Assembly: GCF_015852565.1 (NCBI RefSeq)
Contig: NC_136205.1
Coordinates: 3,066,707 to 3,130,706 of the forward strand
Direction of reading: 5' to 3'
DNA length: 64,000 nucleotides
Origin: Branchiostoma floridae
Taxonomy: Eukaryota
This document shows, one piece after another, positions 7,552 to 63,742 of this stretch. The translations under genes were made by a program, and so were the position numbers. How positions within the stretch are numbered: position 1 is the stretch's first letter; every line of letters begins with the position of its first letter. The notes beneath the pieces were generated by a model. It was not told where the DNA came from. It searched no databases and was given only the letters and a program-made list of their open reading frames with translations.

Positions 7552-7665
7552 CTTGTTCACAGTTGTCTCCTCTATACCCGTCAGCACAGTCACAGACGTA
7601 TGAGTTGACTCCGTCTATACAGGCACCGCCATTCTGGCACGGACTCGACTCGCATTCGTCAACAT
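7552..7665 (-). CDS. Calcium-binding EGF exon ([37 protein letters not shown])
   Basis: 114-nt exon. The donor is gtactg on the minus strand. Confidence 0.7.
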
Positions 7666-8055
7666 CTGTTTGTAACAATAAAAGTTTTGTTAAACAAAAT
7701 CAAATTTAAAGAATGGTGTTGCTTTCGCGTTACTCAACAGCTTGGGCACCATTGACATTTTGTTTTAGTATATTTCATTTTTTCTAGATTCATGTGTATA
7801 AAGACTGACCAGGGCTTTAGAGCCTTTCTCTTTCCCACACCCGATTGCTGTTTATTACATCTTCATCTATATACTGGTAAAGACCAAAATGCCCAGTAGT
7901 ACTAAACAGTTGAACCGCCTAGAAACACATAAAGGCAAAATTCCCGTCGCTAACTATGGAAGCAGCAGTACCCTTAAGCTTAATACATGTATCATCTTTT
8001 AGAAATAATTTCTTTCTTGAATATTAGATTATCGAAGACAAAGCACATCACTTAC

Positions 8056-8181
8056 CTGTCTCACAAACTTGCCCTATGAAGCCTGCCGGACATGCGCAGA
8101 CAAAACAAGTATCTTCATCGGCCGAGTAGGTGCAGGTCCCACCATTTTCGCAAGGGGTAGGGTCACAATAGTCCCGTTTCT
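8056..8181 (-). CDS. EGF-like exon (RDYCDPTPCENGGTCTYSADEDTCFVCACPAGFIGQVCE)
   Basis: 126-nt exon with the EGF Cys pattern. Confidence 0.6.
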
Positions 8182-8614
8182 CTGTCGAGATCAAAGTAGA
8201 GATAAAAGAAGCCTTTAAAATCTAGTATGTATCATCTGTGGCTGATTATATTCATAAAAGGCAATGTTTTGATAAAAGAAAGTATGGCATGAAAAAGGCA
8301 TCTCGTTATAATATGGCGTCAGTCTGACTTTCTTGCTCATGTACTGTCTACTGTGTTTGATACGTCAATGAAAGTTAGACATCCAGGTAATAAGATAGAC
8401 CAAAAAAGCGGTTACTCAAGCAACTGGAAATGATTTTGGAAACGGTCAGACGTTTCAGACAGCATCGCTATCTTTCGACATTGACGCTGAGGAAAGCTGT
8501 TTGAAGAGAAGGTCTTATATCCTACCTATGACTTGAGTTAAACTTAGTCTCAGTTAGTGCGTTGGATCATTACAGATTACCGTCTGCACCCCTGTCAATC
8601 ATCTGATGACGTAC

Positions 8615-8753
8615 CTTCTTGGCAGGTCTGCCCCTCCCAGCCACACGCGCAAGTGCTGTCGGGACATTCTCCGGTGAAGCGGTTGCAGACGGCGTCATCA
8701 CGACAGTGGCAGGTAGAGGTGCATCCGGCACCAAACGTTCCCGCGCTGCACGC
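8615..8753 (-). CDS. Laminin-type EGF-like exon (CSAGTFGAGCTSTCHCRDDAVCNRFTGECPDSTCACGWEGQTC)
   Basis: It shows the 8-Cys laminin-EGF-like spacing in the minus-strand ORF 8595-8834. Confidence 0.5.
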
Positions 8754-9465
8754 TACAGAATCACATAAGTCAACAATTTTACACTGAAACCTGAAGATCT
8801 GCTGAAGTACTAAACACAGCCGATAGGGGTCCATAATCGAAACGTCTAGATGTACCTAAACTAACATTACTTATCAAATGTATTAAAAGATGCATTCATA
8901 ACTTCTCGAGTAAGTGCTCAAAAACGAACCATTCTTGGTAAGGTACGTAAAGTGCTCTGTATACATGGAAACATGTTTTGGCATTCTTCACTTTCTTTCC
9001 CTGTGGTAAATATCACACATTGTACAGTTCTTTTTGAAGGTTAGGTCAATTTTGACTTTTTGAACAAGTGATAAAATATTGGCTCCCCCAGTGCTGCTGT
9101 TCAACTCACTATGTAAGGTGCAGTTGTCTACTGAAAACTACACAGAACGTTTAAAAAAGGAAATTGAATTGAACAGCAGGGACTACAAACCCAGACGGGG
9201 GACGATACAGACTACCTGGCATAATTGACCCGTCGTTGACGTCACGCTAACGTTCAGGCCACGTGACATCAAGCTATTTTAAATTGCGAGGACTGATCGA
9301 AAGCTTGTGCTTTACTTTGTGTGCAAAATATATAAATAAAATTAAATATAGAATATTAAGTGTTTACAATGATTTGAAATATTCTATTGACAAAGGAAAA
9401 CTGGTCATTACGCATGTAAACAATTACCAGGCTATCATATAGACAAGAAAGGCAGTGTCCCGTAC

Positions 9466-9618
9466 CTGTGTCACATCTCAGACCCCGGAAGCCGGTGTTA
9501 CAGGAGCAGCCGTACGGGTCGGGGACACAGAACTGGAGTTCTGCGCATGCGTCAGGGCTGTCAACGCCATTGTCGCATTTGTGGGAACACGCCAGTCCGA
9601 ACCGGTTACTTCCGCAGG
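9466..9618 (-). CDS. EGF/laminin-EGF-like exon (SACGSNRFGLACSHKCDNG...CSCNTGFRGLRCDTG)
   Basis: Cys-rich ORF 9356-9643. Minus-strand splice sites are cctcag|exon and exon|gtacgg. Confidence 0.5.
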
Positions 9619-10003
9619 CTGAGGAGGGGGTGGGGTGAGTCATTCGTTTGTTTGTTTGTTTGTTTGTTTATTTGGTTTATTCACACACAATGTCGGAATA
9701 CTTCACAGTTGAGTGGTCTAAAAAGAAACTACTGATATGTAAAGCATCAGTAACAGCAGGCCCTAACCTGGAACCCACAGGGCAAACAAAAGAGTGGAAG
9801 GCATAAGAACAGCTGGAGAAGGGACACCGAGGAAGAGATGAGGAGCATCAGTAACAGCTGGCACGACCTGAGAAGGAAGGCACAGAGACGTGTACAGTGG
9901 AGGGCAATCATCGGTGGCCTATACTCCAACTGGGGCAAAGGGCCCAAGTAAGTAAAATATGTAAAAAAACAAACAAAATAAAAAATCGAACTTCGTGTCT
10001 TAC

Positions 10004-10135
10004 GTATTTCGCAGCGGTCTCCCCGAAAGCCCGGTGGACAGATGCACTCCCCCGTGTCGGAGTGGCACATCCCACCGTGGAGGCAGTTCGGACACCCCCG
10101 GCTACATCCGGGACCCCACCGGTTTTCTTGACATC
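10004..10135 (-). CDS. EGF-like exon (GCQENRWGPGCSRGCPNCLHGGMCHSDTGECICPPGFRGDRCE)
   Basis: Cys-rich ORF 9747-10163. The exon is 132 nt. Confidence 0.55.
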
Positions 10136-10618
10136 CTAAAGAAAAAATGACAGGTGTTAACACTCACGTGACTGTGTCTTAGGTACTGCCCGCCATGTTG
10201 GATGGTTAAAGCTGGAAGTTGCTAGGTAACTTTGAATTATCATATGCAGACGTCAGGTAATTATTACATCATATCATACAAATGCACATTTACAGGTATC
10301 CAGAAGGGAATCAACCAACATGGCAGACAGTAACATACCAAAACTATTTTTTTCAGAATGCTCTGGGGACAAGAACTGACATTCTAAGTGAATGTATGAT
10401 AAACGTTGTTTTTGAAGTCTCCATTGATCAATCGACCCATCAATCAATCAGTCAATAAATTAATCAATCAATTTACTTAAAGTTTTCTACTAACTTCTTG
10501 ATAAATTGTAGTTTACTAACAAGTCAGATTCAAGGATGTATTCGTGTGCTTTACAGAATATTGTGAAAAGGCAGTTAAAGACAATGGTCAGTGCAGCAAA
10601 CTGATAAGTTTAGTGTAC

Positions 10619-16931: not shown

Positions 16932-17511
16932 CGAGGGGCGTTCAAGAAGTAATCCACCTGACCCATTTCCCAAAGGAGGAGATTAATGAAACTTGGTGCA
17001 GTTATTAGTCTTTCTCTTCATAGGAATCACCCAGAGTTATGCATTTCTACCATCGTTTGATGCAGCTCTGTACACCGTTTTTGTAGGACGCCCCAGGTTG
17101 GTCCTGCAACAGATGCCTCATCAATGGCAGAAGAGGGACGACCAGGTCTGGGAGCTGTTTCCACAGACTTCCGGCCATGTTTGAATTCACAATGCCAGCG
17201 TTTTACAAGGTCATATGATGGGGAATCATCACCATAAGTTTCTTTTATTTCATCAAAAGTCTCATTTGGTGTGCGTCCTTTCAAATACAAAAACCGGATC
17301 ACTGCGCGACACTCAACTGGCTTCATTTCACACCTGGTCCATTTCACACCTGACTCAGTTCAAACACCTTTAAATCAAAAACCAAAATTAGTTCAGAGCT
17401 GTTTTTTGCAACATAACCCATAGAGATATGAATCATTACATATGCAAAATTTCATCTAGATCAGACAACTGGAAGTGGGTCAGGTGGATTACTTCTTGAA
17501 CGCCCCTCGAT
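16932..17511 (-). mobile_element. Internally deleted mariner-like element (~580 bp) with ~38-bp TIRs and a remnant transposase N-terminal HTH ORF
   Basis: The TIRs are cgaggggcgttcaagaagtaatccacctgacccatttcc and its reverse complement at 17473-17511. ORF 17027-17347 (…CRAVIRFLYLKGRTPNETFDEIKETYGDDSPSYDLVKRWHCEFKHGRKSVETAPRPGRP) resembles the Mos1/Himar HTH. TA dinucleotides flank the element. Confidence 0.8.
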
Positions 17512-29922: not shown

Positions 29923-30301
29923 GTAAGGGTCGTGTGGCGCAATTAGAGGGTGTTTGATTGATGAAACTCTTGTTTTCCCAGTTTTCCGTAAGCCAGTGAA
30001 AATGTTTGGTACATGGTGCTGAAATGCCGTCCATCAAAATTTGAAGACTTAGTCAGTTACTACTGGTGGCTGCTGGTCCCAGAAAAGTTATTTCCTGATG
30101 TCAGTTTCCTGCTATATGTATGTAGTACATGTATGACCTAGGAGCCAGTGGGGAAAATACTGAAGACTTTATCAAAAAGAAATTTGCAGTAATAATGACT
30201 AAAACTGGAAATTAACATAAACTAAAAAAAGAATATTTCATTGAGGCATGACACTATTGATTTCTTGTTTCTTGCTATTCAACAATGGTCCATTCTTACA
30301 G

Positions 30302-30420
30302 CACCAGTGCAAAATACTCCTCTCCCAACAAGTCCAGAGGTACCAGATACATGGTAGTGAGTGAGGTAGCCTTGGGGAAGTGTAAGGATGTGTATCAACA
30401 CGGCATCGATTCCTAAATGT
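30302..30420 (+). pseudogene. Tandem partial duplicate (copy 1) of PARP4 exon 13: acceptor plus the first ~115 nt, ending in an in-frame TAA
   Basis: ttcttacag|CACCAGTGCAAAATACTCCTCTCCCAACAAGTCCAGAGGTACCAGATACATGG... repeats the exon-13 start. It then diverges at ...GTGTATCAACACGGCATCGATTCCTAA. Confidence 0.7.
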
Positions 30421-30453
30421 TTCTAACATTTCAATCATGGTCCTTTCTTACAG

Positions 30454-30577
30454 CACCAGTGCAGCATACTCCTCTCCCAACAAGTCCAGAGGTACCAGAT
30501 ACATGGTAGTGAGTGAGGTAGCCTTGGGGAAGTGTAAGGATGTGTATCAACACGGCATCGATTCCTAAATGTTTCTA
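30454..30577 (+). pseudogene. Tandem partial duplicate (copy 2) of PARP4 exon 13, a 158-bp unit
   Basis: Second near-identical copy of the unit. The authentic exon is the third copy, at 30606-30789. Confidence 0.7.
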
Positions 30578-30605
30578 ACATTTCAATCATGGTCCTTTCT
30601 TACAG

Positions 30606-30789
30606 CACCAGTGCAGCATACTCCTCTCCCAACAAGTCCAGAGGTACCAGATACATGGTAGTGAGTGAGGTAGCCTTGGGGAAGTGTAAGGATGTGTACA
30701 AACACGACACCAGCCTGACACAACCACCTCAGGGGTACAACAGTGTGCATGGAGTCAAGGGGACTGATGAGATCACTTCAGAGTTTAAG
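30606..30789 (+). CDS. PARP4: PARP4 exon 13 (PARP catalytic domain)
   Basis: tcttacag|STSAAYSSPNKSRGTRYMVVSEVALGKCKDVYKHDTSLTQPPQGYNSVHGVKGTDEITSEFK|gtagga. Matches human LSTSIKYSHPGETDGTRLLLICDVALGKCMDLHEKDFSLTEAPPGYDSVHGV. Confidence 0.9.
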
Positions 30790-31019
30790 GTAGGAATATT
30801 CTAAATGAGAAACGAACTCTTCTCCAACTCCAAAGTATTGAATTTTTGTCTGAATAACTCAGTCGTCTTAATCTGGAGAGAATCTCATTTTCATTTACAA
30901 CTGTCTTGAGAAGCAAGAAGAAGTTGAACCTTTACATACTAGACTAAGTATACTTTAGACTTTGTTGTCTTAGTTTTATATCACATCCTTACACACATTG
31001 CACTTAGAATCCCTAGGAA

Positions 31020-32600
31020 CTGCATTCTATTCACCTTGTTTCCAATGACATAATTTCCGAAAACCAACATGCGTATAGAAAATCACACTCTACAGCTAGT
31101 GCCCTTATACAAATGTCTGACTACTGGTTGGGGGAGATAGATAAAGGGAATTTGATTGGCGCCGTTATGCTAGATTTTAGCGCGGCATTTGATGTCATTA
31201 ACCACGATATTTGTTTAGCCAAGCTTAAGAGCTATGGTTTTGAGGAATCTGCAATCAAGTGGGTACAGAGTTATCTTGGCAACAGGAAACAAGCTGTATT
31301 CGTTAACGGTAGTTTTTCCTCATATAAAGAATCCAGGTGCGGCGTTCCCCAAGGCAGCTGCCTGGGTCCATTGCTTTTCTCTATATTTGTCAATGATCTC
31401 CCCGCATTTACAAATAGTATAGTAGTCATGTACGCTGATGATTCAACGCCCTCAGCATCGGCTCCCACTGTCGCGAAATTGAAATACAAATTGCAGACTG
31501 ACTTGGAGCGAATCTGGAATTGGGTACAAACTAATCATCTTGTTCTCAATATTGGAAAAACTAAATCAATCATGATGGGTACGCAACAAAAACTAAAACG
31601 TAATCCCAAATTAGAACTAAGAATAGATGGAACAGACATTACACATGTAGAACAGGCTGAACTGTTAGGTCTCACTATAGACCAACGTCTCACATGGGGA
31701 TCGCATATTGACAAAACGAAGAATAAAATGGCAGGCATACTAGCCACAATAAGACGACACAGGAAGTACTTCACAAAAAGTATATTGAGATCTGTTATTC
31801 AGGCTCTGGTTTTGTCACACATTGACTACGGCTCAGTGCTGCTATCCTCTGCACCACAGACACACATAGATGGTCTTCAGGTGGTCCAGAATCGCGCTGC
31901 TCGCCTGGCCACAAACAAGCCCTTTGACACCAACCTGGAAGACCTACACATGCAGTTAAAGTGGCAAACCGTTAAAGAAAGACTCTTCACAAATACTGTA
32001 TGTACATTCCACAAAATTGTTAAGGAAAGGCAACCCCAATGCATCTTCAAGCAATTACAAACAATTCAATCCACACATGAGCATCACACGAGGCTGTCTA
32101 CTAGAGGAGCATTCACTCAATCAAAACCCAAAACAAACGCTAAAACAAGGACATTTGGCTACAGATGCATCAAAACCTATAACACATTGCCAAACACAAC
32201 GACATCATACAACAACATTGAGTTCAAATCTAGGATAAAAGAGCTTGCGAAAACACGAGACAAAAGACAACCCCTGAGCACATGGTGGTAATGATTTTTA
32301 TATTTCAGTATATCTAAGTTATATATTTATGTTGTGTTATTAGTACACTTTTGATTGGATTGTGTTTCAATCAATTAAGTTAACTTCTTCTGCTATTCAT
32401 TATTTGTTATGTATGATCACTTCTTTATTTTGACCTCTGACCTCTGCTTATTATTTTGCTTATTATTTTACGCTAATTATCCGCTTTTGATGTTAAGTTG
32501 TTTCTTTTTCATTTCATGTATTTTATTTATTCTTATTATTATGACTCCAGGAAGAGTAGTGGCATGATTTTATGATGTACACTAATGGAGATCGCAACAA
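31020..32600 (+). mobile_element. 5'-truncated non-LTR (LINE) retrotransposon fragment with a reverse-transcriptase ORF, lying in the PARP4 intron between exons 13 and 14
   Basis: ORF 31113-32291 carries RT motifs: AVMLDFSAAFDVINHD, CGVPQGSCLGPLLF, YADD, and a thumb-like C-terminus. Confidence 0.8.
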
Positions 32601-42952: not shown

Positions 42953-43054
42953 ACAAAGAAAATGGGTCTGAAGCCGTACATTATCGACCTTAGTAAGGAG
43001 TACTCCATCGTCACACAGTTCACCAGCTTTGTAGCTGTGGAGAAGCGGGAAAAG
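42953..43054 (+). CDS. PARP4: PARP4 exon 28
   Basis: ttttccag|TKKMGLKPYIIDLSKEYSIVTQFTSFVAVEKREK|gtgaga. Matches human MKKQTLKSLIIKLSKENSLITQFTSFVAVEKRDE. Confidence 0.9.
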
Positions 43055-43529
43055 GTGAGAAAAATTTTGGTGACACCAAGGGAACAGAACTTGTACTTGT
43101 AACAGTTACTGTAAGTGTGGAAATAACTCATAAGCCAGAGCGAAAAAAAAAAAAATCCATGAAAACAAAAATTCTGCCAAACCACAGGACTAAACATCCA
43201 GACCATTTTTTCCCAGGCTTGGTTTGTCTTATGGTCCACATCCAGTAAACCTGTAAGATACAATCATCGCCATTTCAATAAATATTTATTCATTTATTGC
43301 TATTCTTGTTCAAAGAGGGGAACGCCCCATGCCCTGACCATTTGCCCCCTTACCCTGAGGAGCGGATCCTCTGACAGTTATAAAATTCTGATTAACCAGG
43401 GGTAGTTTAAGGACAAACGTGGGCATAGTTTGTTTGTTTTTTGAGAAAAGGGGAAAAGCAACACACTCACGGATGTTATTCATAGAATGAAGTCAGTGTG
43501 GCCTATGACATAATGATTGTTTGATGCAG

Positions 43530-43657
43530 GATGAAGATCTGACTACCGGTGAGGGTCCAAGCATCACAGAACTGGTGGAAAAAGAGAGTGTGGACATCCT
43601 ATCCTACATGGGATGGGAGAGGGACAAAGGGGAAGAGGAGGCAGAGGAAGTGTATAA
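43530..43657 (+). CDS. PARP4: PARP4 exon 29 (ends in a basic NLS-like stretch)
   Basis: gatgcag|DEDLTTGEGPSITELVEKESVDILSYMGWERTKGKRRQRKCI(+AG)|gtatga. Matches human NESPFPDIPKVSELIAKEDVDFLPYMSWQGE...KRKHRK. Leaves phase 2. Confidence 0.75.
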
Positions 43658-43785
43658 GGTATGAGCCAAATTAAAGTGGAATTTTGGCTTGCTTTAAAAT
43701 GAAAGATTTTTGTGAAGAAAATCAAGTACGTGTGCCTTAAATTTTTTGACTGGACATCGCATAGTTTCTTGTATTCAATTTCTAG

Positions 43786-44187
43786 AATAAAGTGCTTGAT
43801 GGACAGATCACAGAAAAGGCCATTGAACACAGCTTGGAGTTCTACACCACTGCAGTGGAGACTGCAAAAAGGGAGCTTCCCCCAACCCATCCAACAGTGT
43901 TGCAGTCACAGCTCTCTTTGGCAATGTTTTATCACAACAAATTGAATATGCAGGACAAGGCCTGCCTGGTTGCAAAGGCTGCCTTTGACGATGCGATCGC
44001 GGAGTTGGATACTCTGAGCAAGGAAAGCTACAAGGACTCGACCTTGGTGATGCAGCAGTTGAGAGACAACTTGACATTGTGGTCTGCTGAGGACGGGGAA
44101 GAAGAGAAAAAAGCCAACGAAAAGAAAAAGGTCCTTATTCCTAGTGTCAACCATAGCTCACTTTGGCTAATCAACCTTCTCGGATGA
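43786..44187 (+). CDS. Intact ORF encoding a 14-3-3 protein C-terminal half (helices 7-9, including 14-3-3 signature 2). It is embedded between PARP4 exons 29 and 30. Its status is unresolved: it could be an exonized module, a nested-gene exon or a young pseudogene fragment.
   Basis: [109 protein letters not shown]. Compare 14-3-3 epsilon [42 protein letters not shown]...[41 protein letters not shown]. The frame is open from the tttctag| acceptor-like site at 43785 to the TGA at 44185. It is not in phase with the exon-29 donor when obvious splice sites are used. Confidence 0.5.
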
Positions 44188-44194
44188 AGCCCAT

Positions 44195-44575
44195 CTTACA
44201 TACCCAACCATGGCCTCGCGACCTTCTCCAGACCATGGTTGGGAGTTAAGCCCCTGTCACACATAGCCGACCATGCCCTCCCAACCTTCTTCAGACCATG
44301 GTCAGGAGTTAAGCCCTTGTCTTACATACCTGACCATGGCCTCCCAACCTTCTCCAGACCATGGTCAGGAGTTAAGCCCTTGTCTTACATACCTGACCAT
44401 GGCCTCCCAACCTTCTCCAGACCATGGTCAGGAGTTAAGCCCTTGTCTTACATACCTGACCATGGCCTCCCAACCTTCTCCAGACCATGGTTGGGAGTTA
44501 AGCCCGTCTTACATACCCAACCATGGCCTCGCGACCTTCTCCAGACCATGGTTGGGAGTGAGACCATCAGTAATT
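44195..44575. repeat. Tandem array (~6 copies) of a 63-bp (3n) unit with internal palindromes (catacctgaccatgg…ccatggtcagg). It is open in two reading frames.
   Basis: ccatggtcaggagttaagcccttgtcttacatacctgaccatggcctcccaaccttctccaga repeated. ORFs 44239-44613 and 44273-44632 are open only because of the 3n periodicity. Confidence 0.7.
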
Positions 44576-45028
44576 TGGACCAGACCAAACTTGGCAAAGT
44601 CATATTCTTCTAAGGTGCAAGCAGATTGGTAAAATGGAATATGGTTGGTAGCAAGTCATTGAAAGGTCCTGAATTTGTGACAGGGGATGTGACTAGTACA
44701 TAATTTTGCATGGAAACGGGAATAGACCGACTGAGTGTGCTTGTTAAAACTAAGAGTAGATTATCTTCAAGACCAGAATCTTCAAATTACCAATTGAATT
44801 TATCATAACTTTTCTATATTTGATGTTGTCAACAGGTCATAGAGGAAGTTTATTATGAAGAGGTTTTAATGGGAGGTAAGATACCAATTAATCTTTAATT
44901 TACATTTAGTTTAACCTTGTATTAAGTTGGAATTTATTGAATGGTTGATCATGAGATTTCAACACCAAGGACTCTATTGAAATGCACATCTTGATTTTGT
45001 TTTGGTATTTTTATTTTCCAACTTCTAG

Positions 45029-45169
45029 ACTTGGATGATTTTGACATGGAGGACCCTGAGTATCTAGAAATGGGAGGTGCTGGTGTTTCCTCCAGCACAG
45101 AGGAGACAGAATCTGATGACTCGTGGGGATCAGATTCAGATCTAGATGAAGAGAGTGAATGTGAGGAAG
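45029..45169 (+). CDS. PARP4: PARP4 C-terminal-region exon 30 (acidic)
   Basis: cttctag|(x)LDDFDMEDPEYLEMGGAGVSSSTEETESDDSWGSDSDLDEESECEE(G)|gtaaga. Phase 1 in and out. It chains in phase to the next two exons. Confidence 0.55.
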
Positions 45170-46037: not shown

Positions 46038-46133
46038 GAGGTAAGGAAACAGTAAGAAAGAAAGATTCATCATCACCAGAGGAGGAAGAGAGTGAAGAAG
46101 AGATGGGGTTTGGATTGTTTGATGATGGTGAAG
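46038..46133 (+). CDS. PARP4: PARP4 C-terminal-region exon 31, carrying a ribosomal P-protein-like tail motif (SPEEEESEEEMGFGLFDD)
   Basis: ttcacag|GGKETVRKKDSSSPEEEESEEEMGFGLFDDGE(G)|gtagga. Phase 1 in and out. Confidence 0.55.
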
Positions 46134-46398
46134 GTAGGATGGCAGGTGAGATGGTAGAGTACTGTAAATCTTGAGATGCATGGTTTTCATGGTGACATCT
46201 CCACCATGATACAATCGCCATACAAACAGCCCGGCTGGGCCCTGGGTTATAGAAATGTGACTTAGTCCTTACTGTTACCTAGTTTAATAAAAGAGACAAC
46301 GAAAAAGAACTGCAGTCAAAAATCATACTTTTGACACTTTTTGTTGGGCTCCGTTTTTCAAAGACACTAACTCTTGAATCTTTCTATTTCTTCAACAG

Positions 46399-48751
46399 CT
46401 GCTGATGAAAAAGAGGGTTCTCCTCTTGCTGATACTTATCAGATGAAGGCTAATGCCTTGCAATTGGAAAAAGGTCGATTTGCATCTCCCATGAGGTCTA
46501 GATCAAGGTCAAGGTCAGATAAACATTCCTCTCCAGCATACAGCCCGACATCTCCAGCATATAGCCCAGCATCTCCAGCATATAGCCCGACTTCACCTAC
46601 TGAGGAAGCCACAGAGGCTGAGTACACAAAGCCTAAACCTCTAGCTCGGAAAATGGCACCAAAACGGGTCGAAAAGGAGAAGGCACCAAGCCCACACTTC
46701 TCAAAGATGTCTGCAACGTTCTTGACCCGAGAATCTGAAAGGGGAAAGTCCTCATACAGAGTGTCAGATGAAGTTCAGGCTCGTGTAGATCGCCTTGATG
46801 ATCTAGTAGAAAAAGCTGATGCTCTTAGTGCACAAGCTGCAATATTTGGTGCTTCAACAACCATTTCTAAAGATGATGGCCTCTTTGCCGGTTCAACAGA
46901 GGCAAGTGTGCAGAAACCTAAACCTTTTGAATCCAAGCCAGGTATCGTTCAACCTGCCAGATTTACTTATGAAGCAACACCAGATACTACCAAGGGTCTT
47001 TTTGGCAGAAAGGCTGAACCAGAGACTGCAGGGTTTGCTCTTGCCCAGTCTGTGGCCGCAGAAGAGCCAGCTCCTGCTTTTGGTTTTGGAGCTCCAGTTG
47101 CAAGCTTTGGTGCAGAAACTTATGGAACTCGTGGTGTAGACTTGGATGCACCCATACCGTATGGCAAAATCCCAGTTGGTGGAACGCCGTTTGGTGAAAC
47201 GCCAGTTAGTGGAAAGCCGTTTGGTGAATCTGCTGTAAAGTTTGGAGGTCCTCCTGGCACTGTAGCTGGCACAAAGACGCAAGAGACTGCATTTGGTCAG
47301 GGTTTTGGTTATGCTTCAAGTCGTGGTGTAGGCTTTGGTAAAGCAACATTTGGTGAAGCAACATATGGCACACCATTTGGTGGAACACCATTTGCTGCAA
47401 CCACAGGTCTTTTTGCCCACTCAACTGCACCAAAGGATCAGGAAGCTGTGTCATTTGGTTTTGCTCCCTCTACTGACCAGAGCACAAGGGGTGGTGGAGG
47501 ATCCGCAGGTGGTTTTAGCTTTGGTTGGACTGCATCATCAGATTTGGGACAGAGGGATCGAGACAGGAGCTCCCCCCTAATTGGTGACACAAAAAAAGGA
47601 TTCAAGTTTGGAGCCTCACTTGAAGAGAAAGAAGAAACAGCAAGCTTTAGCTTTGGTGGATCCAGCCAGAAAGTGGTTCCTCAAGCAGGTTTTGGAGCTG
47701 ATCAACAGATGCAGCAGCAACAACAGCAACAACAACAACAGGCTCAGATGAATGTCTCTGATACTGCTCCTCAGAGGAAGATGCGAAGCAGGCTTCATGG
47801 CGCTATAGCTACCTTAAGTGAATCCAGTCAAGCAGAAATGGTTCCTGAAGCAGGTTTTATCTCCAATCAACGGATGCAGCAGCAACAGGCTCAGATGGAT
47901 GTTCTTCTTACTGCTCCTCCGAGGACAGGTGGTGGAAGGGTTCATGGCGCTTTAACTAGATTAGACGAATCCAGTCAAGCAAAAGTGGTTCCTCAAGCAC
48001 GTGTTGGCTCTCGAGCTCCTCAAAAAGCGAGGAAGACAACTGGCGGCAAGGCTGTTAGAGTTTCTTCAGGATTCAAGGACAGCTTGGACATCGTAGACAA
48101 GAGTTCACGCGACACTGGTGACTCTTGGAGAGCTGTCAAACGGACCGAGACCCCCATGGCTGGTTATTTTGACATGAGGGCCATGTCCCCTGCCTCAACA
48201 AATTCTGCACAGTCAGTTGCTTTTCAACAGCTGTCAGCATCTGCTGCCTTTCTACAGGCACCCCCTCCTGCGCCACCCCCTTGTTCAACAGGCCCCCCTC
48301 CTCTTCCACCCCGCTGCCCAGCAGGACCCCCTCCTCCAGCTGGTGCCCCTCCCCCACCACCACCACCCCCTAAGGGCATTCAGCTTCTTAAACCAAGAGC
48401 AAGTTTAAAGTCCAAAGCAGTAATGGCAGCACCCATGCGTGCACTATCCATGCCCTCGAAAGAATATGCCCCATTGCCCCCTCCTCCTCCAAGTTCAGTC
48501 GAACAGGCACCAGAGCTACCAGCATGGGATAGAGAAGAAGAACTGCAAATGGGGATTGTTGAAGAAAGCCGTGCAATTGCTTCGTATGAACAGATGGAAG
48601 AGTTAAAACCATTGTCAAGAAGTTTGGAATTGAGACAAAAGAAGAAAAAGAAACAGTTCGAAATCCAGGCAAGGTTGGAGGAAGAAAAGGTATCATTGGA
48701 CAAAGTCATGTACATGGATGAAAGCGTTCAAGAAGGAGAGGAAATGTACAG
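46399..48751 (+). CDS. PARP4: PARP4 giant low-complexity exon 32 (784 codons) with five modules: SPAYSPT CTD-like heptads, FG/GF repeats, polyQ, an FH1-like polyproline run and a basic KKKKKQFEIQARLEEEK tail
   Basis: Single ORF 46374-48755. The acceptor ttcaacag|CT at 46398 is in phase with exon 31. The donor ATGTACAG|gtaaga at 48751 is in phase with exon 33. The position corresponds to the Pro/Ser-rich disordered region of human PARP4. Confidence 0.65.
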
Positions 48752-49442: not shown

Positions 49443-49519
49443 GACCAGTTTGAGGGGGTTTTACGGTCCAAGAAGAGGTCCCGGTGCATATCACTCTGCC
49501 AGCTTTCATCTAACCTCAG
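49443..49519 (+). CDS. PARP4: PARP4 exon 33
   Basis: tatttcag|(R)TSLRGFYGPRRGPGAYHSASFHLTS|gtaggt. Matches human GFGSYHPSASSPFHFQPS. Confidence 0.6.
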
Positions 49520-49978
49520 GTAGGTTAATCAATTCATGTGCAAAGTAAGGCTAATATCAGTAGTCTAAGACTAGATGGAGAGCTTTTTTATATAGTCATC
49601 CAAAGATCTAAACTTCATTGAAATATCATGATAGGACCGTTGATCATTGAAATAGCATTGAAAGATGTTGTAGGTCACTAAAATATCATTAGTAAGACCA
49701 TACTTCAAATGGGGGCATGGGTTCGTATCCCACTTCTGACACCATATTGGCTTAGAGATTATCTCAGTCGTAGACTTAAAATGCTCAACATTTCTTGTCC
49801 CAAAGAACTAATTGCCAAGGTACAATGGACCTGTAAATACTGTACACAGTGTCCATCTTACCTGTCATGACCAGTGCAGATGTTAGTAATGACTGACTAA
49901 GAAAAAAGAAATTGCACAAATGTCTAATCTGAAAAATGATGCTCACAAGTAATCATGTTTTTTTTCAACCCTCTGCAG

Positions 49979-50079
49979 GTTCCTTTAGTGGAAGAGAAAT
50001 TGATGTAGTACCTGTCGTGACCACAAGGGGGAGGGTCATCACAGAGACAACTGTTGACCAAATCTTTGCACTGCTAAAG
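49979..50079 (+). CDS. PARP4: PARP4 exon 34
   Basis: ctctgcag|(G)SFSGREIDVVPVVTTRGRVITETTVDQIFALLK|gtatca. Phase-consistent. Confidence 0.55.
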
Positions 50080-50578
50080 GTATCATTTGTAATTATTGGT
50101 TCAAATATAAAGTATAGTAGCTCTAGTTTTAGAGTGATGAATTACTGTAACATTAACACTGAATTTATTCTTTTTTGAGTGGGAGATTAGAATTGGTCTT
50201 GCACCCATCCATAATTTGACTGTTTTTTTGACAGTTTACTGCGTACTCGGATGCCAAAATGTTCTTTTATTCTTTATTGCAGGCGCTAATAGGCCCATAG
50301 TAAAAGCCTACTGTATAAGACACACAACATAACATAGATATTAAAACAACAATGCCACTCTATGTGTACAAGCGCCTCCTGATGTTTTTGAAATATTATT
50401 GTGTTATGGTAGAAAGAATCCAACTAGATGGAATGGGAAGAGTGGAAAAGCGGAATATACAAAAGAACGTTTGCGTCATGATAGAGTAATATTAGCATAG
50501 ATAATACCATAGTTTACTCATATAGCTAAAACCCAAGGATAAAACAATCAAATTTAATTATATTGCCCCCCTCCCCAG

Positions 50579-50693
50579 CACACTGACCAGGGGCTCTCCT
50601 ACTGGGAGTTCAGTCCAGAGTTAGACGAGTTGCTTGGGATTTCCAGTCAGCAGTGCATCCAGATATTTAACACTGCAGGACTCAAATCTCTGG
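50579..50693 (+). CDS. PARP4: PARP4 exon 35 (MVP-interaction region)
   Basis: ctccccag|HTDQGLSYWEFSPELDELLGISSQQCIQIFNTAGLKSL(G)|gtaaga. Matches human TEDGFWKLTPELGLILNLNTNGLHSFLKQKGIQSLG. Confidence 0.85.
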
Positions 50694-51244
50694 GTAAGAT
50701 CTCATTCATGATCATGGTCATAAGGATATGTGTCCATACATGTAGTCAGGTCAGATGACAACTGTTTCCCTCCTGTCAACAGTCTTTCAGCCTGCAAAAA
50801 GAATCTTCACATCTATTTCCTTGCATGATACTAAGTAATTTTCGCAAACCCATCAACTTAGTTCATTGCCTAGAAGTGGTCAAATGGTCTTGCTTTGATC
50901 AAGCCATATTGCATTAACAAAAGGTAAAGAAATGAAATAAGGAATGAATGAAGACCTTTATTCTACATTTTTGCCCAACTGAACTAAGCACAGGTCACAA
51001 GAAAGACAAAACACACAATGTTATGCAAAAGTACAATATTATTTGTATCATAGATCTAATCTAGTGAAGAAGTTTGGCTTCTTCTCCCTTCCTGGTAATG
51101 GTAAAAATGTAGGCTTGTATGTTGTTAGGTTTGTCAAAATGCAACTCATATCTATTAAGTGAATCTACTTCCTATTTCTATCATTAACATAGTGCATAGT
51201 CCAATCAACAACGAAGTGAACTTCATCTTCATTTATCTTCATCT

Positions 51245-51330
51245 CCAGGTGTGAATGTTGCCAGGCAGATACTGCAGCTGGTGGCCACCTTTGAACAAGC
51301 TCGTACAAAAAACATTGAAAAATACCTTTA
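51245..51330 (+). pseudogene. Degenerate partial duplicate of PARP4 exon 36 (…VNVARQILQLVATFEQARTKNIEKYL*)
   Basis: ttcatctccag|GTGTGAATGTTGCCAGGCAGATACTGCAGCTGGTGGCCACC... has the same acceptor and first 45 nt as the exon at 51380, then diverges to a stop. Confidence 0.6.
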
Positions 51331-51379
51331 AGTTAGCACTGAGTGGGACATAATTTTTTATTTTTATTTTGATCTCCAG

Positions 51380-51555
51380 GTGCGAATGTTGCCAGGCAGC
51401 TGCTGCAGCTGGTGGCCACCTTGCTGGTTGTGCAGCTGCTGATGCTGCACCTGCCGCAGCTGTTCCCCAGCTGCAGGAGCCTGCTGCACCTGGATGTGGC
51501 GCAGGTGCCGGCCAAGTGGTGCAGTGCATTGCAGCAGGTGCTCACATGGGCCAAG
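51380..51555 (+). CDS. PARP4: PARP4 exon 36 (MVP-interaction region)
   Basis: atctccag|(G)ANVARQLLQLVATLLVVQLLMLHLPQLFPSCRSLLHLDVAQVPAKWCSALQQVLTWAK|gtagga. Matches human RECLLDLIATMLVLQFIRTRLEKEGIVFKSLMKMDDASISRNIPWAFEAIKQASEWVRR. Confidence 0.8.
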
Positions 51556-51654
51556 GTAGGATTTTGTACTACAAAACTACCAAAACTAGACTGAGTTTGT
51601 ACTACAAAAACTTAATTTGTATACACTTGTTGCAAGAAGAGGAAAGAGACATGT

Positions 51655-51870
51655 AAATGATAGATGTAATAATAGTGGCGCAGGCGTCAGCCACTTGGTG
51701 CAGCACACTGCAACAGGTGCTCACATCGGCCAAGGTAGGAGTTACCTACTGATAATATGAGGGGCAATCAATAAGTTTACACAGAAAAAAGGTGCACAAC
51801 TCAAATTTTGGAGCATTATAAACTATATGAATGTGCACCAAAATTCAATGGGCCAAGGTAGGAGTTGGCT
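51655..51870 (+). repeat. Two extra copies of the exon-36 3' end plus donor junction (…CAACAGGTGCTCACATCGGCCAAG|gtaggag) and downstream intron start
   Basis: 51690-51740 and 51845-51870 repeat the sequence GGGCCAAGgtaggagtt...gaggggcaatcaataag. Confidence 0.6.
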
Positions 51871-52353
51871 ACTTAGTATGAGGGGTGATCAATAAATTCT
51901 TGGACTCATGAATAAAGGTGCTTAACTCAGATTTTGGATCTGATGTAAAGTATAAAGTATTATATGAATTTGTACCATAATTCAAATCATTGTGATCATT
52001 ATTGTACAGGCAACACCCAGTAATGGTAGGTAAGAGAGAAGAAAAAACATGGACAATTGAGCTGCAAGCTGAGGTGTGCATGTCAACTTGTTCTGCTAAA
52101 TGTCGGATACTAATAAAAGAATTAGGCACTGAAGAGGACGAATTTGAAAGAGAAATCAAGAAGCTTAAGATCACACCAATGTTCACTCATCAGGTATAAG
52201 CTTTGTTGTACTGTTGACCAATCGCTTACGTGACATGAATTATGAGGAAGACTGCAGTTGAAATTTCTATGTACTATTTTCTTGTGGTGGAACAAAATTT
52301 TAATTCTGTTATCATATAAATCTATTCGTTTATTAATTTTTCTATTTTCACAG

Positions 52354-52452
52354 AGTGTTGACACGATGCACCCATCAGTGTACTCCCGTTTGGAGCTTGG
52401 GAAGAGTTGGGAGGACCTGACCACAAAGCTGATCGGTGTCAGCAATGCATAG
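52354..52452 (+). CDS. PARP4: PARP4 terminal exon 37 with stop codon
   Basis: ttttcacag|SVDTMHPSVYSRLELGKSWEDLTTKLIGVSNA*. Matches the human C-terminus YPSICPRLELGNDWDSATKQLLGLQP. Confidence 0.85.
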   Translation, partial: SVDTMHPSVYSRLELGKSWEDLTTKLIGVSNA

Positions 52453-57454: not shown

Positions 57455-58639
57455 GTAAGCCTTGCTTAATACACCTTCAAACATTGTCTAACAGGCTGCT
57501 TTTATTTAGCAGTAAAACTTACGGACTTTTCATATTCACTTTTGGAACAGTCCATTTTTGCATGAGTTGTGAGATGGTTAGATATGCTGTATTTGTTCGC
57601 AAATATTACCCGTCTATTTGAATATTTTTACTTGGATGTCTGATCTCCAGGAGCCCGTGGCGTCCCGATTTTAATTTTTTTTTACACTTATCAGCTCGAT
57701 GAAAAATGGACCCTTCCAGCCGAACGCCATATCAAACAAATAGAATCCCCTGTTCTATTTCGAATACTCGGTCAAAAAGAGCCCTAGTGGGATAGGAGTA
57801 GCTAAAGAAAAAATGCTATGCCTTTTTTGTTGAAGACTACACCGGCCGAGTATAGTTGTTTTGGAAGGGTGGGCGCTACATACGTAGCATTACTTTGTTC
57901 CTGGGAAGGATGCACGTGCAAAGTGTGCGTAGTAGGGGCGGGATTCTGCAGTAGCGAACTTTAATTTTTAGTAGGGTCTTATATTTTGTATATGGATACT
58001 GAAGAGGACCTTCTTTTGTTCCTGTAGGTTATAACTGTTGTGTCGGCGTGTGGTGAGGAGAAGGTCATTGGCCACAAAAGCATTGCACACTAAGTAAGTG
58101 TGCCTTTTACATCGGAGGTAAGACAGTCTAATACCCTGGGGGCCAGACAGGATCGGGTAGCTAGCAATTTTTGTTCGGGGACCCAAAGCAGTCAGCCCGC
58201 CGATCTCACATAAGCGCTCCGGGGAGTTCAGCCGGAAGGAGTTATCGCTACGGAAATGGGCAGGTGGACATTCTTCGGGCTTAAACTCCCCGGAGCGCTG
58301 TTAGGAGATCGGCGGGCTGACTGTCTTGGGCCACCGAATGAACTGCCCAAGCTGCCCGATCCCGGCTGGCCCGTTGGGTACAGTCTAACCGAGCAGTTTG
58401 CAAACTGACATGATACCGGGTACCATTTGCTTCGGTGCCCGCAAGGAGCCCTGATGCCACAAAATGTTCCGGTGGACTGCCGGAGTGACTGGGAGGAGGT
58501 ACCTCTCGGTACTATTATGTTTATTGCAAATTCTTGCAGTAGAAAAGTAGTTGAAAGTTCTATGCACTATTTTCCCATGTTGAAATGTTTTGATTCTGTA
58601 ATACATTCATTCTTTTATTTTTCCTTTTTTTTCTCACAG

Positions 58640-58738
58640 GGTGTTTACGCGATGCACCCATCAGTGTACTACCGTTTGGAACTTGTGAAGAGTTGGGAGG
58701 ACCTGACCACAAAACTTATTGGTGTCAGCAATGTGTAG
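58640..58738 (+). pseudogene. Second copy of the PARP4 terminal exon (…GVYAMHPSVYYRLELVKSWEDLTTKLIGVSNV*), together with its upstream intron segment
   Basis: ttctcacag|GGTGTTTACGCGATGCACCCATCAGTGTACTACCGTTTGGAACTTGTGAAGAGTTGGGAGGACCTGACCACAAAACTTATTGGTGTCAGCAATGTGTAG is about 90% identical to 52354-52452. The upstream intron sequence is also duplicated. Confidence 0.7.
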
Positions 58739-60017: not shown

Positions 60018-61244
60018 TTAAAGTCCAAATACGTGTAGGAAGTTTTTATTCGATTCCTCCCAGTACTTCGAATCCAGCAGTTTCTGCTTGAGCCGTTGAG
60101 CAACCTTGAACTCCGTGCTTCTATTCTTCAATATCTGCACAATGCGCGTTTTTAGCCTTGCCACGTCTTCGTGGTCATCGCCACTGATCTCCACAATCGG
60201 GTGCGTGAAATCCAAGTCACCGTCAATCTTATATTGGGCCTTCAAGAACTCTGCAAGCCCCGACTTGCTGGAAACGACCGTAGGGACACCCGCAGCGATG
60301 GCCTCGAGGCCAACCAGTCCGAATGGCTCTGCACGTGACGGCATCAGAACAACATCTGCCCTTCCCATCTCTTCGCACAGCTCTTCCTGTGTGCAATACT
60401 CCAGAGGGGTGAAGGGAACAAACTCAAATTTACCTTTGTTGGCGTTGATGATCTCCTGTGTTTTTTCAAAATCCCCTTTCTTGATGCCACACAGTCGCCA
60501 CTTCGTGTTGGGTAGTTCCTCGATCACATCTCCCATGCTCCGTGCTGAAAGATCGTAGCCTTTCAACCTCTCCACACCCTTGACCCTACCGATGGACAGC
60601 ACCACTCTTGTGTCGGTCTCCGCGGGTGGTTCCATATTGGCCTTGCTGAATATGTCGGACGGTTTAGGCAAAAACTGGATCCGTTTTAGTTGTTTGACTT
60701 GCTTTGTCTGATGCGTGTAGTAGTCGTGCAACCTTGGACCTACTGAGACGACAACACTTGCATCTTTAAGGTCATCCAGAATGCTCGCATGCTCCTTTGC
60801 TATCTCCTGCACTCTCTCTGTACTTTTGTAGTGGCTCGTGTTTTCAGGGATGACGTGTGTGACTTGGGCGAGTTTGGCGTCAGGAAGGCGGTCCTCCTTG
60901 ATTCGTTTTGCTGCGCGGCTTGTGATGTTAACGTGACCGACGATGAAGTCTACATCTTCCGGTAAGTGTGGATAATAAGTCAGATGTTGCCGGGTCAGCC
61001 ACTTAAGGTTTGGGGTTTCGTCGTCATCTTCGGTTCTTGGAAAGATCAGCTGAACCCCATCAGCAGCTGCATCATCCTTGTCCTTCTGGTTGGCCTGTAA
61101 GACTGTGCTGTAGACCTTTGCCCCTTTCAAAGCCAGAAAGCGCGCCGTCTGGCGGTGGATAGTGGATATGCCCCCTTTGGAGGTCCCATACTCATCGTTG
61201 AGCATCAACACCACGGGCTTTCCCCCTTTAAACAGCAAATGCAC
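60018..61244 (-). CDS. Intronless 408-codon GT-B fold, family GT4-like glycosyltransferase ORF (E-x7-E motif EPFGLVGLEAIAAGVPTV). It has no ATG at its N-terminus, so it is possibly a terminal exon.
   Basis: The uninterrupted ORF has N-terminal PVVLMLNDEYGTSKGGISTIHRQTARFLALKGAKV (Gly-rich loop) and C-terminal VVLMPSRAEPFGLVGLEAIAAGVPTVVSSKSGLAEFL. Its first codon in the track is GTG. An AG acceptor (…tttgctgtttaaag|GGGGAAAGCCC) lies 18 nt into the ORF. Confidence 0.7.
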   Translation of the reverse strand: MHLLFKGGKPVVLMLNDEYGTSKGGISTIHRQTARFLALKGAKVYSTVLQANQKDKDDAAADGVQLIFPRTEDDDETPNLKWLTRQHLTYYPHLPEDVDFIVGHVNITSRAAKRIKEDRLPDAKLAQVTHVIPENTSHYKSTERVQEIAKEHASILDDLKDASVVVSVGPRLHDYYTHQTKQVKQLKRIQFLPKPSDIFSKANMEPPAETDTRVVLSIGRVKGVERLKGYDLSARSMGDVIEELPNTKWRLCGIKKGDFEKTQEIINANKGKFEFVPFTPLEYCTQEELCEEMGRADVVLMPSRAEPFGLVGLEAIAAGVPTVVSSKSGLAEFLKAQYKIDGDLDFTHPIVEISGDDHEDVARLKTRIVQILKNRSTEFKVAQRLKQKLLDSKYWEESNKNFLHVFGL

Positions 61245-62580: not shown

Positions 62581-62825
62581 CTGAAAGAGAAAAAAAGCAC
62601 GCCGGGAACTTTATTTTGGGGACATCGCAATACCATAATAATGGCTAATTGTAGCATGATGATCTACTAAATCGTACATCAAGTAGACGTGTTTGATATT
62701 ACACCATAATATTTGGTCATATGATTCTAAAGCTACATTTTGTTTGTACTATGGTTTTAATCCGGTATTTGGGTAAGCTTTGCTTTAGAATAAAGCATTT
62801 TCGGTTATATCTTAGACGCTCTTAC

Positions 62826-63742
62826 CTCCCGAAACGTGAACCTGCATACAACCCGAGGTTCTTGCTCTTGAATAGTTGTGATGATGACTTCACCCTTAAG
62901 ATGTTTTCCGTTCGGCCTATCCAGGAGCATTTGAACAGTCTGTCCGTGCTCTTCGCGACAGAGCTGGGCACATAGCTCTATTGTCTGAGATTCTTTTTGG
63001 CCTTCTTTGATACTGACAACAACTTCAATATCATTCCTTTGAAACAGATCGAACATTGCTTTGTTGCTTCCACACATGGTGAAGCCAGGAAGGTAATAAT
63101 CTTTTTCAACACTCTTGTCCCTACACACAACATGGAAATCTACGTCTACTTCATGTGGCTTGATGTGTGCGGAAAACCGACAATTTAAAGTTCTTAACGA
63201 CAGAACGTATGCCATGCTCTGTCCTACATGTACACCCGTTTCAATTTGCTGCAGCTGCTGCTCGGTCCACAGCACACACAGGGGACAGAAGGCTTGCAGA
63301 GATATGGACAGTTTGTCCGGATGTATCTGATGTGGGGTTGAAGCTGTGATATCTGCCCAGCCATGTCCATCGAAATGCTTCAGCAGAACACATTCCATGC
63401 CTTCAGTACCCGGAGGTCTCCATGTCTCTAGCTCAATTGGTCCACTCAGCTGTGCGCCGTGTAGGTTGACATCGACAGCCGGGGAGAACAGCACCTGATC
63501 CAGCAGCTCGCGTGGACAGGCCTCCTCACATAGAGACCAAGGGTAGCCAGAGATCCAGCTGAAGCCTTCGTCACCTCTCAAAATATCGGGAATGTCTACA
63601 GTAGAAACTGTAATTGTTGTGTCTCTCTGAAGGACGCCTGATGGCACACAAAGTTTGGCAAAACCGGAAATCTCAATCTCCCCACCCGATGGTCCTACAA
63701 ACGCCTTTGCAGTCTTTGTGTGATGTAGCTCTTGCAGTATTC
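62826..63742 (-). CDS. Large exon encoding a ZU5 domain followed by a UPA-like region (UNC5/PIDD/ankyrin-type)
   Basis: ttttag|GILQELHHTKTAKAFVGPSGGEIEISGFAKLCVPSGVLQRDTTITVSTVD…LFSPAVDVNLHGAQLSGPIELETW… has the ZU5 consensus (A-x-F-D-x-x-GG-x-L…G-V-x-L-x-IP-x-GA…SP-x-V-x-x-GP-x-G-x-x-F-x-x-P-V-E-L). The donor is G|gtaaga at 62825. Confidence 0.65.

Follow-up and report, generated by a model that had tools for sequence, protein, structure and literature searches.

The PARP4 gene of the amphioxus Branchiostoma floridae carries, within the disordered tether of its product, an exon that encodes a copy of the docking tail of the ribosomal stalk proteins P0, P1 and P2. The gene lies in a 64,000-nucleotide stretch of the genome (contig NC_136205.1, positions 3,066,707 to 3,130,706 of the forward strand), here called the window, and all positions are those of the window. 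By its sequence the element is a copy of the stalk docking tail, yet it is not a stalk protein. Judged from the tails of PARP4-like proteins in Branchiostoma and in other eukaryotes, it belongs, as one module, to an array of hub-protein copies borne on the PARP4 tether. That the stalk motif is one of many such copies changes its most likely meaning. We tentatively propose that the tether may be a bait or decoy array at the host-pathogen interface, with stalk-dependent toxins as the ligands of the stalk module.

The stalk-tail exon and its match to the P-stalk

The exon extends from 46038 to 46142 on the + strand (105 nt, phase 1-1), has canonical AG/GT borders and encodes ...KKDSSSPEEEESEEEMGFGLFDDGEGRMA. 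Written by letter, with slashes at the borders, it reads ...cacag/GAGGTAAGG...GAGATGGGGTTTGGATTGTTTGATGATGGTGAAG/gtaggatggcag/gtgaga, the acceptor being at 46037/46038. An earlier note on this DNA, made from the letters of the window, had placed the exon at 46038-46133; the start of that interval stands but its end most likely does not. Two GT donors are present, after 46133 and after 46142, and the frame is kept by either. The peptide up to the first donor is GGKETVRKKDSSSPEEEESEEEMGFGLFDDGE, followed by GRMA with the second donor, which is the stronger of the two (GCAG/gtgaga). Since the donor at 46142 is used by the NCBI model P0001 (...FDDGEGRMAAADEK) and B. belcheri has residues matching the form made with this donor (FDQEGWMAADEEK), the exon most likely ends at 46142, and 46133 is an alternative donor.

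Comparison of the exon peptide alone with Pfam revealed a match to Ribosomal_60s at profile positions 68-88 of 88 (E = 7.9e-4). When PDB sequences were searched using phmmer, 21 distinct matches were obtained, all of them P0, P1 or P2 and each aligned at its final residues. The resemblance to the P0/P1/P2 tail, on which the earlier note had rested its case, was thus confirmed by the Pfam family and by solved structures, where stalk termini were the only matches. The residues reported as critical in PMC6162817 (the Asp run, Phe, Leu, Phe and the final Asp) are all found in the window copy. A degenerate coding pattern for MGFGLFD occurred once in the 64-kb window and in 0 of 100 dinucleotide-preserving shuffles. 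A chance 7-mer was ruled out by the shuffles, the Pfam and PDB searches and the conservation described below.

The motif is followed in frame by ~950 further residues, and it is therefore internal, as had been claimed, and not at the extreme C-terminus; the stalk proteins matched in the PDB all end at the motif, unlike the PARP4 copy. Neither the P1/P2 dimerisation domain nor the uL10 body was found: only Pfam profile positions 68-88 were matched, and the flanks are a 14-3-3 fragment and acidic or low-complexity sequence. A gene-model chimera with an adjacent RPLP gene was also considered and ruled out, as the N-terminal domain of a P-protein is absent and the motif lies inside transcript-derived proteins of Euglena and Mastigella.

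Position of the exon in the PARP4 gene

Analysis of stop-to-stop frames together with tblastn placed the PARP4 gene on the + strand, from ~21.5 kb to ~52.4 kb. The window exons are mostly 94-100% identical (tblastn) to an annotated Branchiostoma 'PARP4-like' protein, P0002, whose precomputed Pfam content includes BRCT, PARP_reg and PARP and which also carries VIT, vWA and 14-3-3. P0001 and P0002 both derive from an assembly of B. floridae x B. japonicum and show 98-99% identity with the window over their best alignments. The BRCT and PARP regulatory/catalytic parts of PARP4 are present in window exons at 21.5-30.8 kb, and the catalytic H-Y-E was seen by inspection (KFHSS, GIYFSD, DDEYVIY). The VIT and vWA (ITIH-like) region is present as well, and its 643-aa query retrieves PARP4 proteins across eukaryotes. 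The terminal exons match residues 1582-1706 of human PARP4 (E = 4e-14), which form the MVP-interaction domain in the vault cage (PDB 9bw6/9bw7). This domain was identified by PDB sequence search; the Pfam library used gave no match for it, and PF26156 was assigned to the B. lanceolatum orthologue. The identification of the gene as PARP4, the vault PARP (PARP clade 5), in the present analysis agrees with the earlier note and is borne out by the 94-100% identity to P0002 and by the match to the MVP-interaction domain.

The stalk exon is placed between the ITIH-like body with the 14-3-3 fragment and the MVP-interaction domain. Since this last domain is encoded by the last exons, the stalk-tail copy lies on the tether that joins the enzyme body to the vault anchor. 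The exon belongs to a stop-free chain of canonical GT-AG exons, made up of the stalk exon, seven further exons and the large exon in one open frame. After the vWA region the open chain comprises 42953-43054, 43530-43658, 43786-44130, 44836-44875, 45029-45169, the stalk exon, 46399-48751, 49443-49519 and 49979-50079. Thus the exon is indeed in phase with its acidic and low-complexity neighbours, all being read in one stop-free frame.

The NCBI annotation divides this locus into the 'PARP4-like' P0002, which has a read-through end after the 14-3-3 exon, and the 'uncharacterized LOC144867646' P0001. The B. lanceolatum annotation likewise divides the PARP4 locus in two. In B. belcheri, by contrast, one model (P0003) spans everything from the vWA tail through 14-3-3 and the stalk motif to the MVP-interaction domain. 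From the splice chain and P0003, a single transcript uniting the enzyme body, the stalk exon and the MVP-interaction domain is predicted. Both P0001 and P0003 include the exon, confirming that it is part of gene models. A 63-bp minisatellite (44194-44559; 5.8 copies, 91% matches) is present in the intron directly after the 14-3-3 exon, exactly at the read-through end of the NCBI PARP4-like model, and may be the cause of the two-gene annotation.

Conservation within Branchiostoma and distribution across PARP4-like proteins

The stalk-motif stretch of B. belcheri reads EEESESDEDMEFGLFDQEG, and an unannotated exon with AG/GT borders at the B. lanceolatum locus (L001) encodes EEEESDDMMEFGLFDEDGEGR. 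In the alignment with B. lanceolatum DNA, identity is concentrated in the stalk exon; the upstream intron could not be aligned and the downstream flank was partly aligned. Over aligned columns the B. floridae and B. belcheri tails share 52% identity, and the motif is among the few conserved islands. On this pattern of identity, the stalk-tail copy is selectively maintained in a fast-evolving tether.

A HMMER search with the VIT-vWA region against 1.84 billion representative proteins yielded 150 PARP4-like proteins, among them the dictyostelid, Mastigella and Euglena carriers named below. Over all searches, 19 PARP4-like proteins were found with the stalk motif, with 28 instances in all and up to four copies per protein. 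The consensus of the 28 instances, EEESDEDMGFGLF[D/G]D, corresponds to the P0 tail over 13 consecutive positions. Serine is present at position -4 in 17 of the 28 instances, a residue that we take to be the equivalent of the CK2 site of P-proteins, and Asp directly follows the motif in 15.

Molluscs with the motif are Gigantopelta, Aplysia (two stalk copies; Pfam PF00428, E = 1.5e-5), Elysia and Argopecten. All eight Argopecten isoforms (8/8) keep the motif, and there is therefore no evidence of a cassette exon or of alternative splicing. Among vertebrates, the motif was found in dendrobatid frogs and a catfish. The mollusc and vertebrate copies lie downstream of the conserved FTSFVAVEKR...LPYMxW landmark of PARP4. 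Dictyostelids with the motif are Heterostelium, Cavenderia (two copies), Synstelium (two copies) and Dictyostelium purpureum (four copies). In the last of these the stalk repeat is YQEESDEDMGFDLFGDYDDKP, and PF00428 (Ribosomal_60s) scores 44.5 bits against a curated cut-off of 28.1. A PARP4-like protein of the archamoeba Mastigella also has the motif, and Euglena gracilis has at least three stalk copies, with PF00428 at 35.7 bits, above the cut-off. By regular expression and inspection, the motif was absent in the mammals examined, Bufo, axolotl, shark, a nemertean, a chiton and one unionid mussel.

On this distribution, the association of the motif with PARP4 is ancient but patchy. It is conserved in the orthologues of B. 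belcheri and B. lanceolatum, where the splice sites are kept, as well as in very distant PARP4-like proteins. Neither outcome that would have told against the earlier note was seen: close relatives have the motif, and annotated gene models include the exon. The earlier note had suggested capture of the exon from an RPLP gene; as a recent event this is disfavoured, because the association spans Metazoa, Amoebozoa and Euglenozoa.

In dictyostelids (P0164, P0170, P0172, P0175, P0176) the motif has an extended form specific to the clade, MGFDLFGDY; one protein has LFGDFDE. The extension resembles the G3BP-binding FGDF motif. A protein search with the four-copy stalk region of D. purpureum for dictyostelid P-proteins and other carriers of MGFDLFG returned nothing at E ≤ 10.

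Other hub-protein copies on PARP4 tails

The coordinates of the stalk-tail copy, of the other elements of the tether and of the remaining PARP4 exons are given in Table 1.

Table 1. Features of the PARP4 gene in the window
Feature	Position	Strand	Remarks
PARP4 body: BRCT, WGR/regulatory, PARP catalytic, VIT and vWA exons	21542-42488	+	tblastn of P0002
Two post-vWA exons (42953-43054 and 43530-43658)	42953-43658	+	encode ...SIVTQFTSFVAVEKREK / ...VDILSYMGWE, conserved in all PARP4s
14-3-3 C-terminal half exon	43786-44130	+	Pfam profile positions 122-223 of 223 only, E = 6e-29
40-nt mini-exon, needed for frame	44836-44875	+	carries the ATG where NCBI model P0001 begins
Acidic exon (DLDDFDMEDPEYLEM...ESDDSWGSDSDLDEESECEE)	45029-45169	+	acidic run around a tryptophan
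Stalk-tail exon	46038-46142	+	encodes GGKETVRKKDSSSPEEEESEEEMGFGLFDDGEGRMA; alternative donor after 46133
11-mer SEEEMGFGLFD	46091-46123	+	equivalent of P-protein SD[D/E]DMGFGLFD
Core MGFGLFD	46103-46123	+	acidic and Lys/Ser lead-in from 46055
Largest exon, 2353 nt, disordered tether	46399-48751	+	hub-motif copies within
Three RNA polymerase II (Pol II) C-terminal domain (CTD)-type heptads	46539-46601	+	YSPTSPA in the window; YSPTSPS in B. lanceolatum
Synaptobrevin-like helix	46767-46856	+	Pfam Synaptobrevin weak: E = 0.05 in the window, 0.0038 in B. belcheri
FG repeats	47067-47669	+	
PolyQ	47703-47747	+	
Histone-H3-tail-like APQKARKTTGGKAVR	48015-48059	+	
Polyproline	48258-48371	+	
Second acidic-W element	48513-48542	+	first within exon 45029-45169
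Terminal exons (49443-49519, 49979-50079, ~50576-50700, ~51379-51555, ~52255-52449)	49443-52449	+	MVP-interaction (vault-anchoring) domain

The large exon also contains RS repeats. Its synaptobrevin-like helix is identical to VAMP2 residues 51-80 at 13 of 30 positions, and the sequence of its H3-tail copy is QKARKTTGGKA, the counterparts being SARKTTGGKA (B. belcheri) and RKSTGGKA (B. lanceolatum). The 14-3-3 remnant of B. belcheri covers Pfam profile positions 189-223 only, as compared to 122-223 in the window. Most of the hub-motif copies of the large exon and the 14-3-3 exon stand out as islands of conservation in B. belcheri and B. lanceolatum.

Such modules were seen in PARP4-like tails of other eukaryotes as well (proteins P0176, P0205, P0107, P0182 and P0207). 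The D. purpureum tail has a full 14-3-3 domain and seven perfect CTD heptads (Pfam RNA_pol_Rpb1_R above cut-off); its WH2 match is weak (E = 0.033), and the dictyostelid polyPro-WH2-C-acidicW arrangement is WASP VCA-like by eye. The tail of Bodo saltans carries Synaptobrevin at 34.8 bits (E = 1.5e-8) and a calmodulin-like EF-hand pair (E = 1e-12). Ubiquitin is present on mollusc and Euglena tails, the next residue being Pro in Gigantopelta, Sinanodonta and Euglena; a ubiquitin-Pro junction resists deubiquitinases. In the mussel Sinanodonta, H3 residues 13-31 are matched at 15 of 19 positions, and KQTAR is present in addition, while a protist PARP4-like tail matches H3 residues 3-17 at 13 of 15 positions, with Arg replacing Lys9 and Lys14.

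The SNARE-like and H3-like matches of the window are weak, single-sequence and chosen after the fact, and they are unconvincing alone. They become credible because they recur in orthologues and have stronger versions in other lineages. 14-3-3, actin, actin-binding and ubiquitin-related domains have been reported on PARP4-like proteins, including the 14-3-3 of B. floridae (Perina et al. 2014, PMC4245714).

Possible roles of the stalk-tail copy

As an array of displays is present on the same tether, the whole tether can be read as a decoy or bait array. In such an array, the stalk-tail copy would act as a docking site displayed in a disordered tether, and proteins normally addressed to the stalk tail would be captured on PARP4 instead of the ribosome. 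Capture would occur beside an ADP-ribosyltransferase, and inside the vault cage when PARP4 is vault-bound. Stalk-dependent ribosome-inactivating toxins would be the paradigm ligands, and host translational GTPases would unavoidably bind as well. Binding might be followed by sequestration, by ADP-ribosylation or by a signal. Many hub surfaces serve pathogen toxins and effectors as docking sites, activating cofactors or substrates. A further step, conceivable but doubtful in our estimate, is that the vault PARP is an ancient 'honeypot', which would lure effectors to the vault beside an ADP-ribosyltransferase, or would release PARP4 as an alarm when the tether is cut or modified. With the same doubt, the honeypot would display copies of the most highly conserved hub surfaces of eukaryotes, namely the stalk tail, the H3 tail, the Pol II CTD, the SNARE core, 14-3-3, ubiquitin, a calmodulin lobe, actin and VCA-type elements.

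Several observations are consistent with the bait array. Some proteins have multiple stalk copies (2-4), like the multi-copy ribosomal stalk. The modules kept are often fragments, such as the last helices of 14-3-3 and the H3 tails, which looks like display of target surfaces rather than retention of working domains. Lineage-specific sets of modules and a patchy motif would be the pattern expected of an arms race. In the literature, the stalk tail is described as the docking site of translational GTPases, ricin, trichosanthin and Shiga toxins. One feature of integrated decoys, a module derived from a pathogen-targeted host protein, fits here, since by its sequence the copy derives from the stalk tail. 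Positive selection has been reported on the disordered linker of mammalian PARP4 (Daugherty et al. 2014, PMC4038475), and the same study proposed that this linker binds pathogen proteins for ADP-ribosylation or vault sequestration. On ribosomes, ricin A chain is inhibited by the peptide SDDDMGFGLFD in free form, with half-maximal inhibitory concentrations (IC50) of 4.7 and 31 μM (PMC6162817). PARP4 sits inside the vault and shapes the set of co-purifying proteins (PMC12280208).

Other points weigh against a bait array. Ricin A chain needs the last Asp (PMC6162817), and with the motif internal, a free terminal carboxylate may be required. Competition for the peptide is to be expected from eEF1A and eEF2, both abundant in the host. 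The stalk motif was absent from the examined sequences of mammals, the group in which positive selection was shown; many of the surveyed gene models are truncated, and absences of the motif are therefore uncertain. We know of no read-out that would make PARP4 a sensor. Each module is also a hub of normal cell interactions, and a cargo-adaptor reading fits the same sequences. Toxins may also be unable to reach a vault-luminal tether. The list of pathogen-targeted hubs was assembled after the fact.

The main rival is an endogenous link to translation, which we regard as possible though rather unlikely. The tail copy would here recruit host eEF2, eEF1A, eRF3, eIF5B and perhaps GCN2 to PARP4 or the vault, so that these ligands are ADP-ribosylated, are loaded or held with vault-enclosed ribosomes, or are competed for with the stalk to tune translation. 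Such a link suits the stalk motif alone very well. The functional docking peptide is matched, including the acidic patch, the conserved serine and the multi-copy display, and ligands that are universal fit a motif conserved from Euglenozoa and Amoebozoa up to chordates. PARP4 belongs to the diphtheria-toxin-like ADP-ribosyltransferases, a fold whose classic target is eEF2. Some 8% of Dictyostelium vaults contain 80S ribosomes with a fixed orientation, and ribosomal proteins are enriched in MVP proximity labelling, both of which would favour a link to translation (PMC13100048). However, Perina et al. (2014) found the VIT/vWA/14-3-3 type in 'four other' amoebae but did not find it in D. discoideum, the source of the ribosome-in-vault data. 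Repeated loss in many lineages would also be odd for a housekeeping role. The neighbours of the motif (H3 tail, CTD heptads, SNARE helix, 14-3-3 helices, ubiquitin and EF-hands) are unrelated to translation, and a translation-specific role would therefore leave the array unexplained.

A convergent acidic-hydrophobic linear motif with another ligand or role is improbable. Candidates would be an acidic/aromatic motif of the Arp2/3 or G3BP type, an intramolecular contact with PARP4 or MVP, or an acidic acceptor region for auto-ADP-ribosylation. The dictyostelid extension MGFDLFGDY / LFGDFDE is foreign to P-protein tails, acidic-W elements are found nearby, and the polyPro-WH2 arrangement of dictyostelids, with its weak WH2, looks WASP-like by eye; all of these would suit convergence. 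Yet the match spans 13 consecutive consensus positions of the P0 tail, which goes beyond an acidic-aromatic pattern. The Pfam stalk model scores above its cut-off in two distant lineages, and the sole matches among solved structures are stalk proteins. Taking these three readings together, it is very probable that the peptide is functional in some way.

We consider it highly improbable that the exon is a neutral passenger left by recent capture or retro-insertion of an RPLP 3' end in amphioxus. A symmetric phase 1-1 exon is compatible with shuffling, and the P-protein tail is present without its N-terminal domain. Against this, the exon has conserved splice sites in three Branchiostoma species, and in the B. 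lanceolatum comparison the upstream intron is unalignable and the downstream flank partly aligned. The motif is moreover found at the equivalent place of PARP4 in molluscs, frogs and catfish, and in amoebozoan and euglenid PARP4-like proteins.

A chance match or annotation artefact, with the exon outside the PARP4 mRNA, has a negligible likelihood: the locus is annotated as two genes by NCBI and in B. lanceolatum, but the motif pattern was in none of the 100 shuffles, a stop-free canonical splice chain links the vWA tail with the MVP-interaction domain, which is sensible only as the end of PARP4, P0003 of B. belcheri unites the parts, and mollusc, Euglena and dictyostelid proteins, some of them from transcriptomes, have all parts in one chain.

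Comparison with known systems

The PARP4 element and the C-terminal tail of P0, P1 and P2 (PF00428; SD[D/E]DMGFGLFD) share an 11-13 residue sequence with an acidic run, a serine at -4 and a GFGLF core. A Lys/Ser/Glu-rich lead-in precedes the PARP4 copy too, and some carriers have several copies. The PARP4 copy differs in being internal and usually followed by Asp, Glu or Gly, and its carrier is a vault ADP-ribosyltransferase that has neither the P1/P2 dimerisation domain nor the uL10 body.

The linker of mammalian PARP4 (PMC4038475) is the same region of the same gene, reaching from the ITIH-like part to the MVP-interaction domain and encoded mostly by the largest exon. The mammalian sequences examined differ in having neither the stalk motif nor recognisable hub copies, and mimicry was not reported there. 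The PARP4-like proteins of Perina et al. 2014 (PMC4245714) belong to the same family, have extra modules after vWA and include those of B. floridae and dictyostelids. That survey dealt with domains of Pfam/SMART size only; the stalk tail, the H3 tail, the CTD heptads, the SNARE-like elements and a unifying interpretation are absent from it. Synthetic stalk-tail peptides directed against ricin A chain (Li et al. 2018, PMC6162817) are alike in that a non-ribosomal SDDDMGFGLFD competes for a stalk-dependent toxin. In contrast to the natural protein segment described here, they are free peptides with a free C-terminus, used in vitro.

By analogy, the integrated decoy of plant NLRs would be the closest concept, and the source of the module fits. 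Integrated decoys and the 'tripwire' linker of NLRP1 likewise have built-in copies of host targets that are modular, lineage-specific and fast-changing. PARP4 differs in that the carrier is docked in the vault cage and is not an NLR, and in the many copies borne on one tether.

Neighbourhood of the locus

A reverse-transcriptase open reading frame (ORF; RVT_1, E = 6e-22) lies in a PARP4 intron at 31017-32288 (+). A PARP catalytic piece encoding STSAKYSSPNKSRGTRYMVVSEVALGKCKDVY occurs three times in tandem at 30261-30800 (+), with two copies in P0002; the triple piece is due either to a genuine duplication at this place or to an error of assembly. About 6 kb downstream of the true last exon of PARP4, a second copy of it, diverged in sequence (...MHPSVYYRLELVKSWEDLTTKLIGVSNV), is present at 58637-58726 (+).

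Upstream of PARP4, an EGF-repeat gene lies on the opposite strand at 2666-10163 (-), and the same neighbour is found in B. lanceolatum (L001, 1-8010, -), indicating that local synteny is conserved. A fragment of a Mos1-type transposase helix-turn-helix (HTH) was also found upstream, at 17027-17347 (-). At 60018-61244 (-), an intronless 408-aa ORF encodes a 'GT4-conflict' glycosyltransferase (PF20706, E = 3e-77), of a family named for biological conflict systems. It adjoins a 280-aa ORF at 62805-63647 (-) without a Pfam match. The presence of a conflict-system gene beside PARP4 may be a coincidence.

Significance

Full-text searches of the literature gave no paper linking PARP4 with the stalk motif, mimicry, decoys or baits, and within the literature searched the stalk-tail copy of PARP4 is apparently undescribed. 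To our knowledge, a stalk tail that is host-encoded but non-ribosomal is without precedent, and the finding matters to the field of the stalk and of ribosome-inactivating proteins.

What vaults and PARP4 do has been an open question since 1986, and the only strong evolutionary clue so far was positive selection on the mammalian linker. In amphioxus, molluscs, amoebae and euglenozoans this linker is legible, with recognisable copies of the stalk tail and of hub motifs. A vague 'pathogen interface' may thereby be replaced by concrete candidate ligands, namely stalk-dependent toxins, eEF2/eEF1A, readers or modifiers of the histone tail and the CTD, and SNARE-directed factors. The stalk-tail copy also connects with the recent finding of vault-enclosed ribosomes. 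If the tether is indeed a bait array, integrated decoys would be an ancient eukaryotic strategy and not a speciality of plant NLRs. If the vault PARP is a honeypot as well, the vault would gain a defined innate-immune function dating to early eukaryotes.

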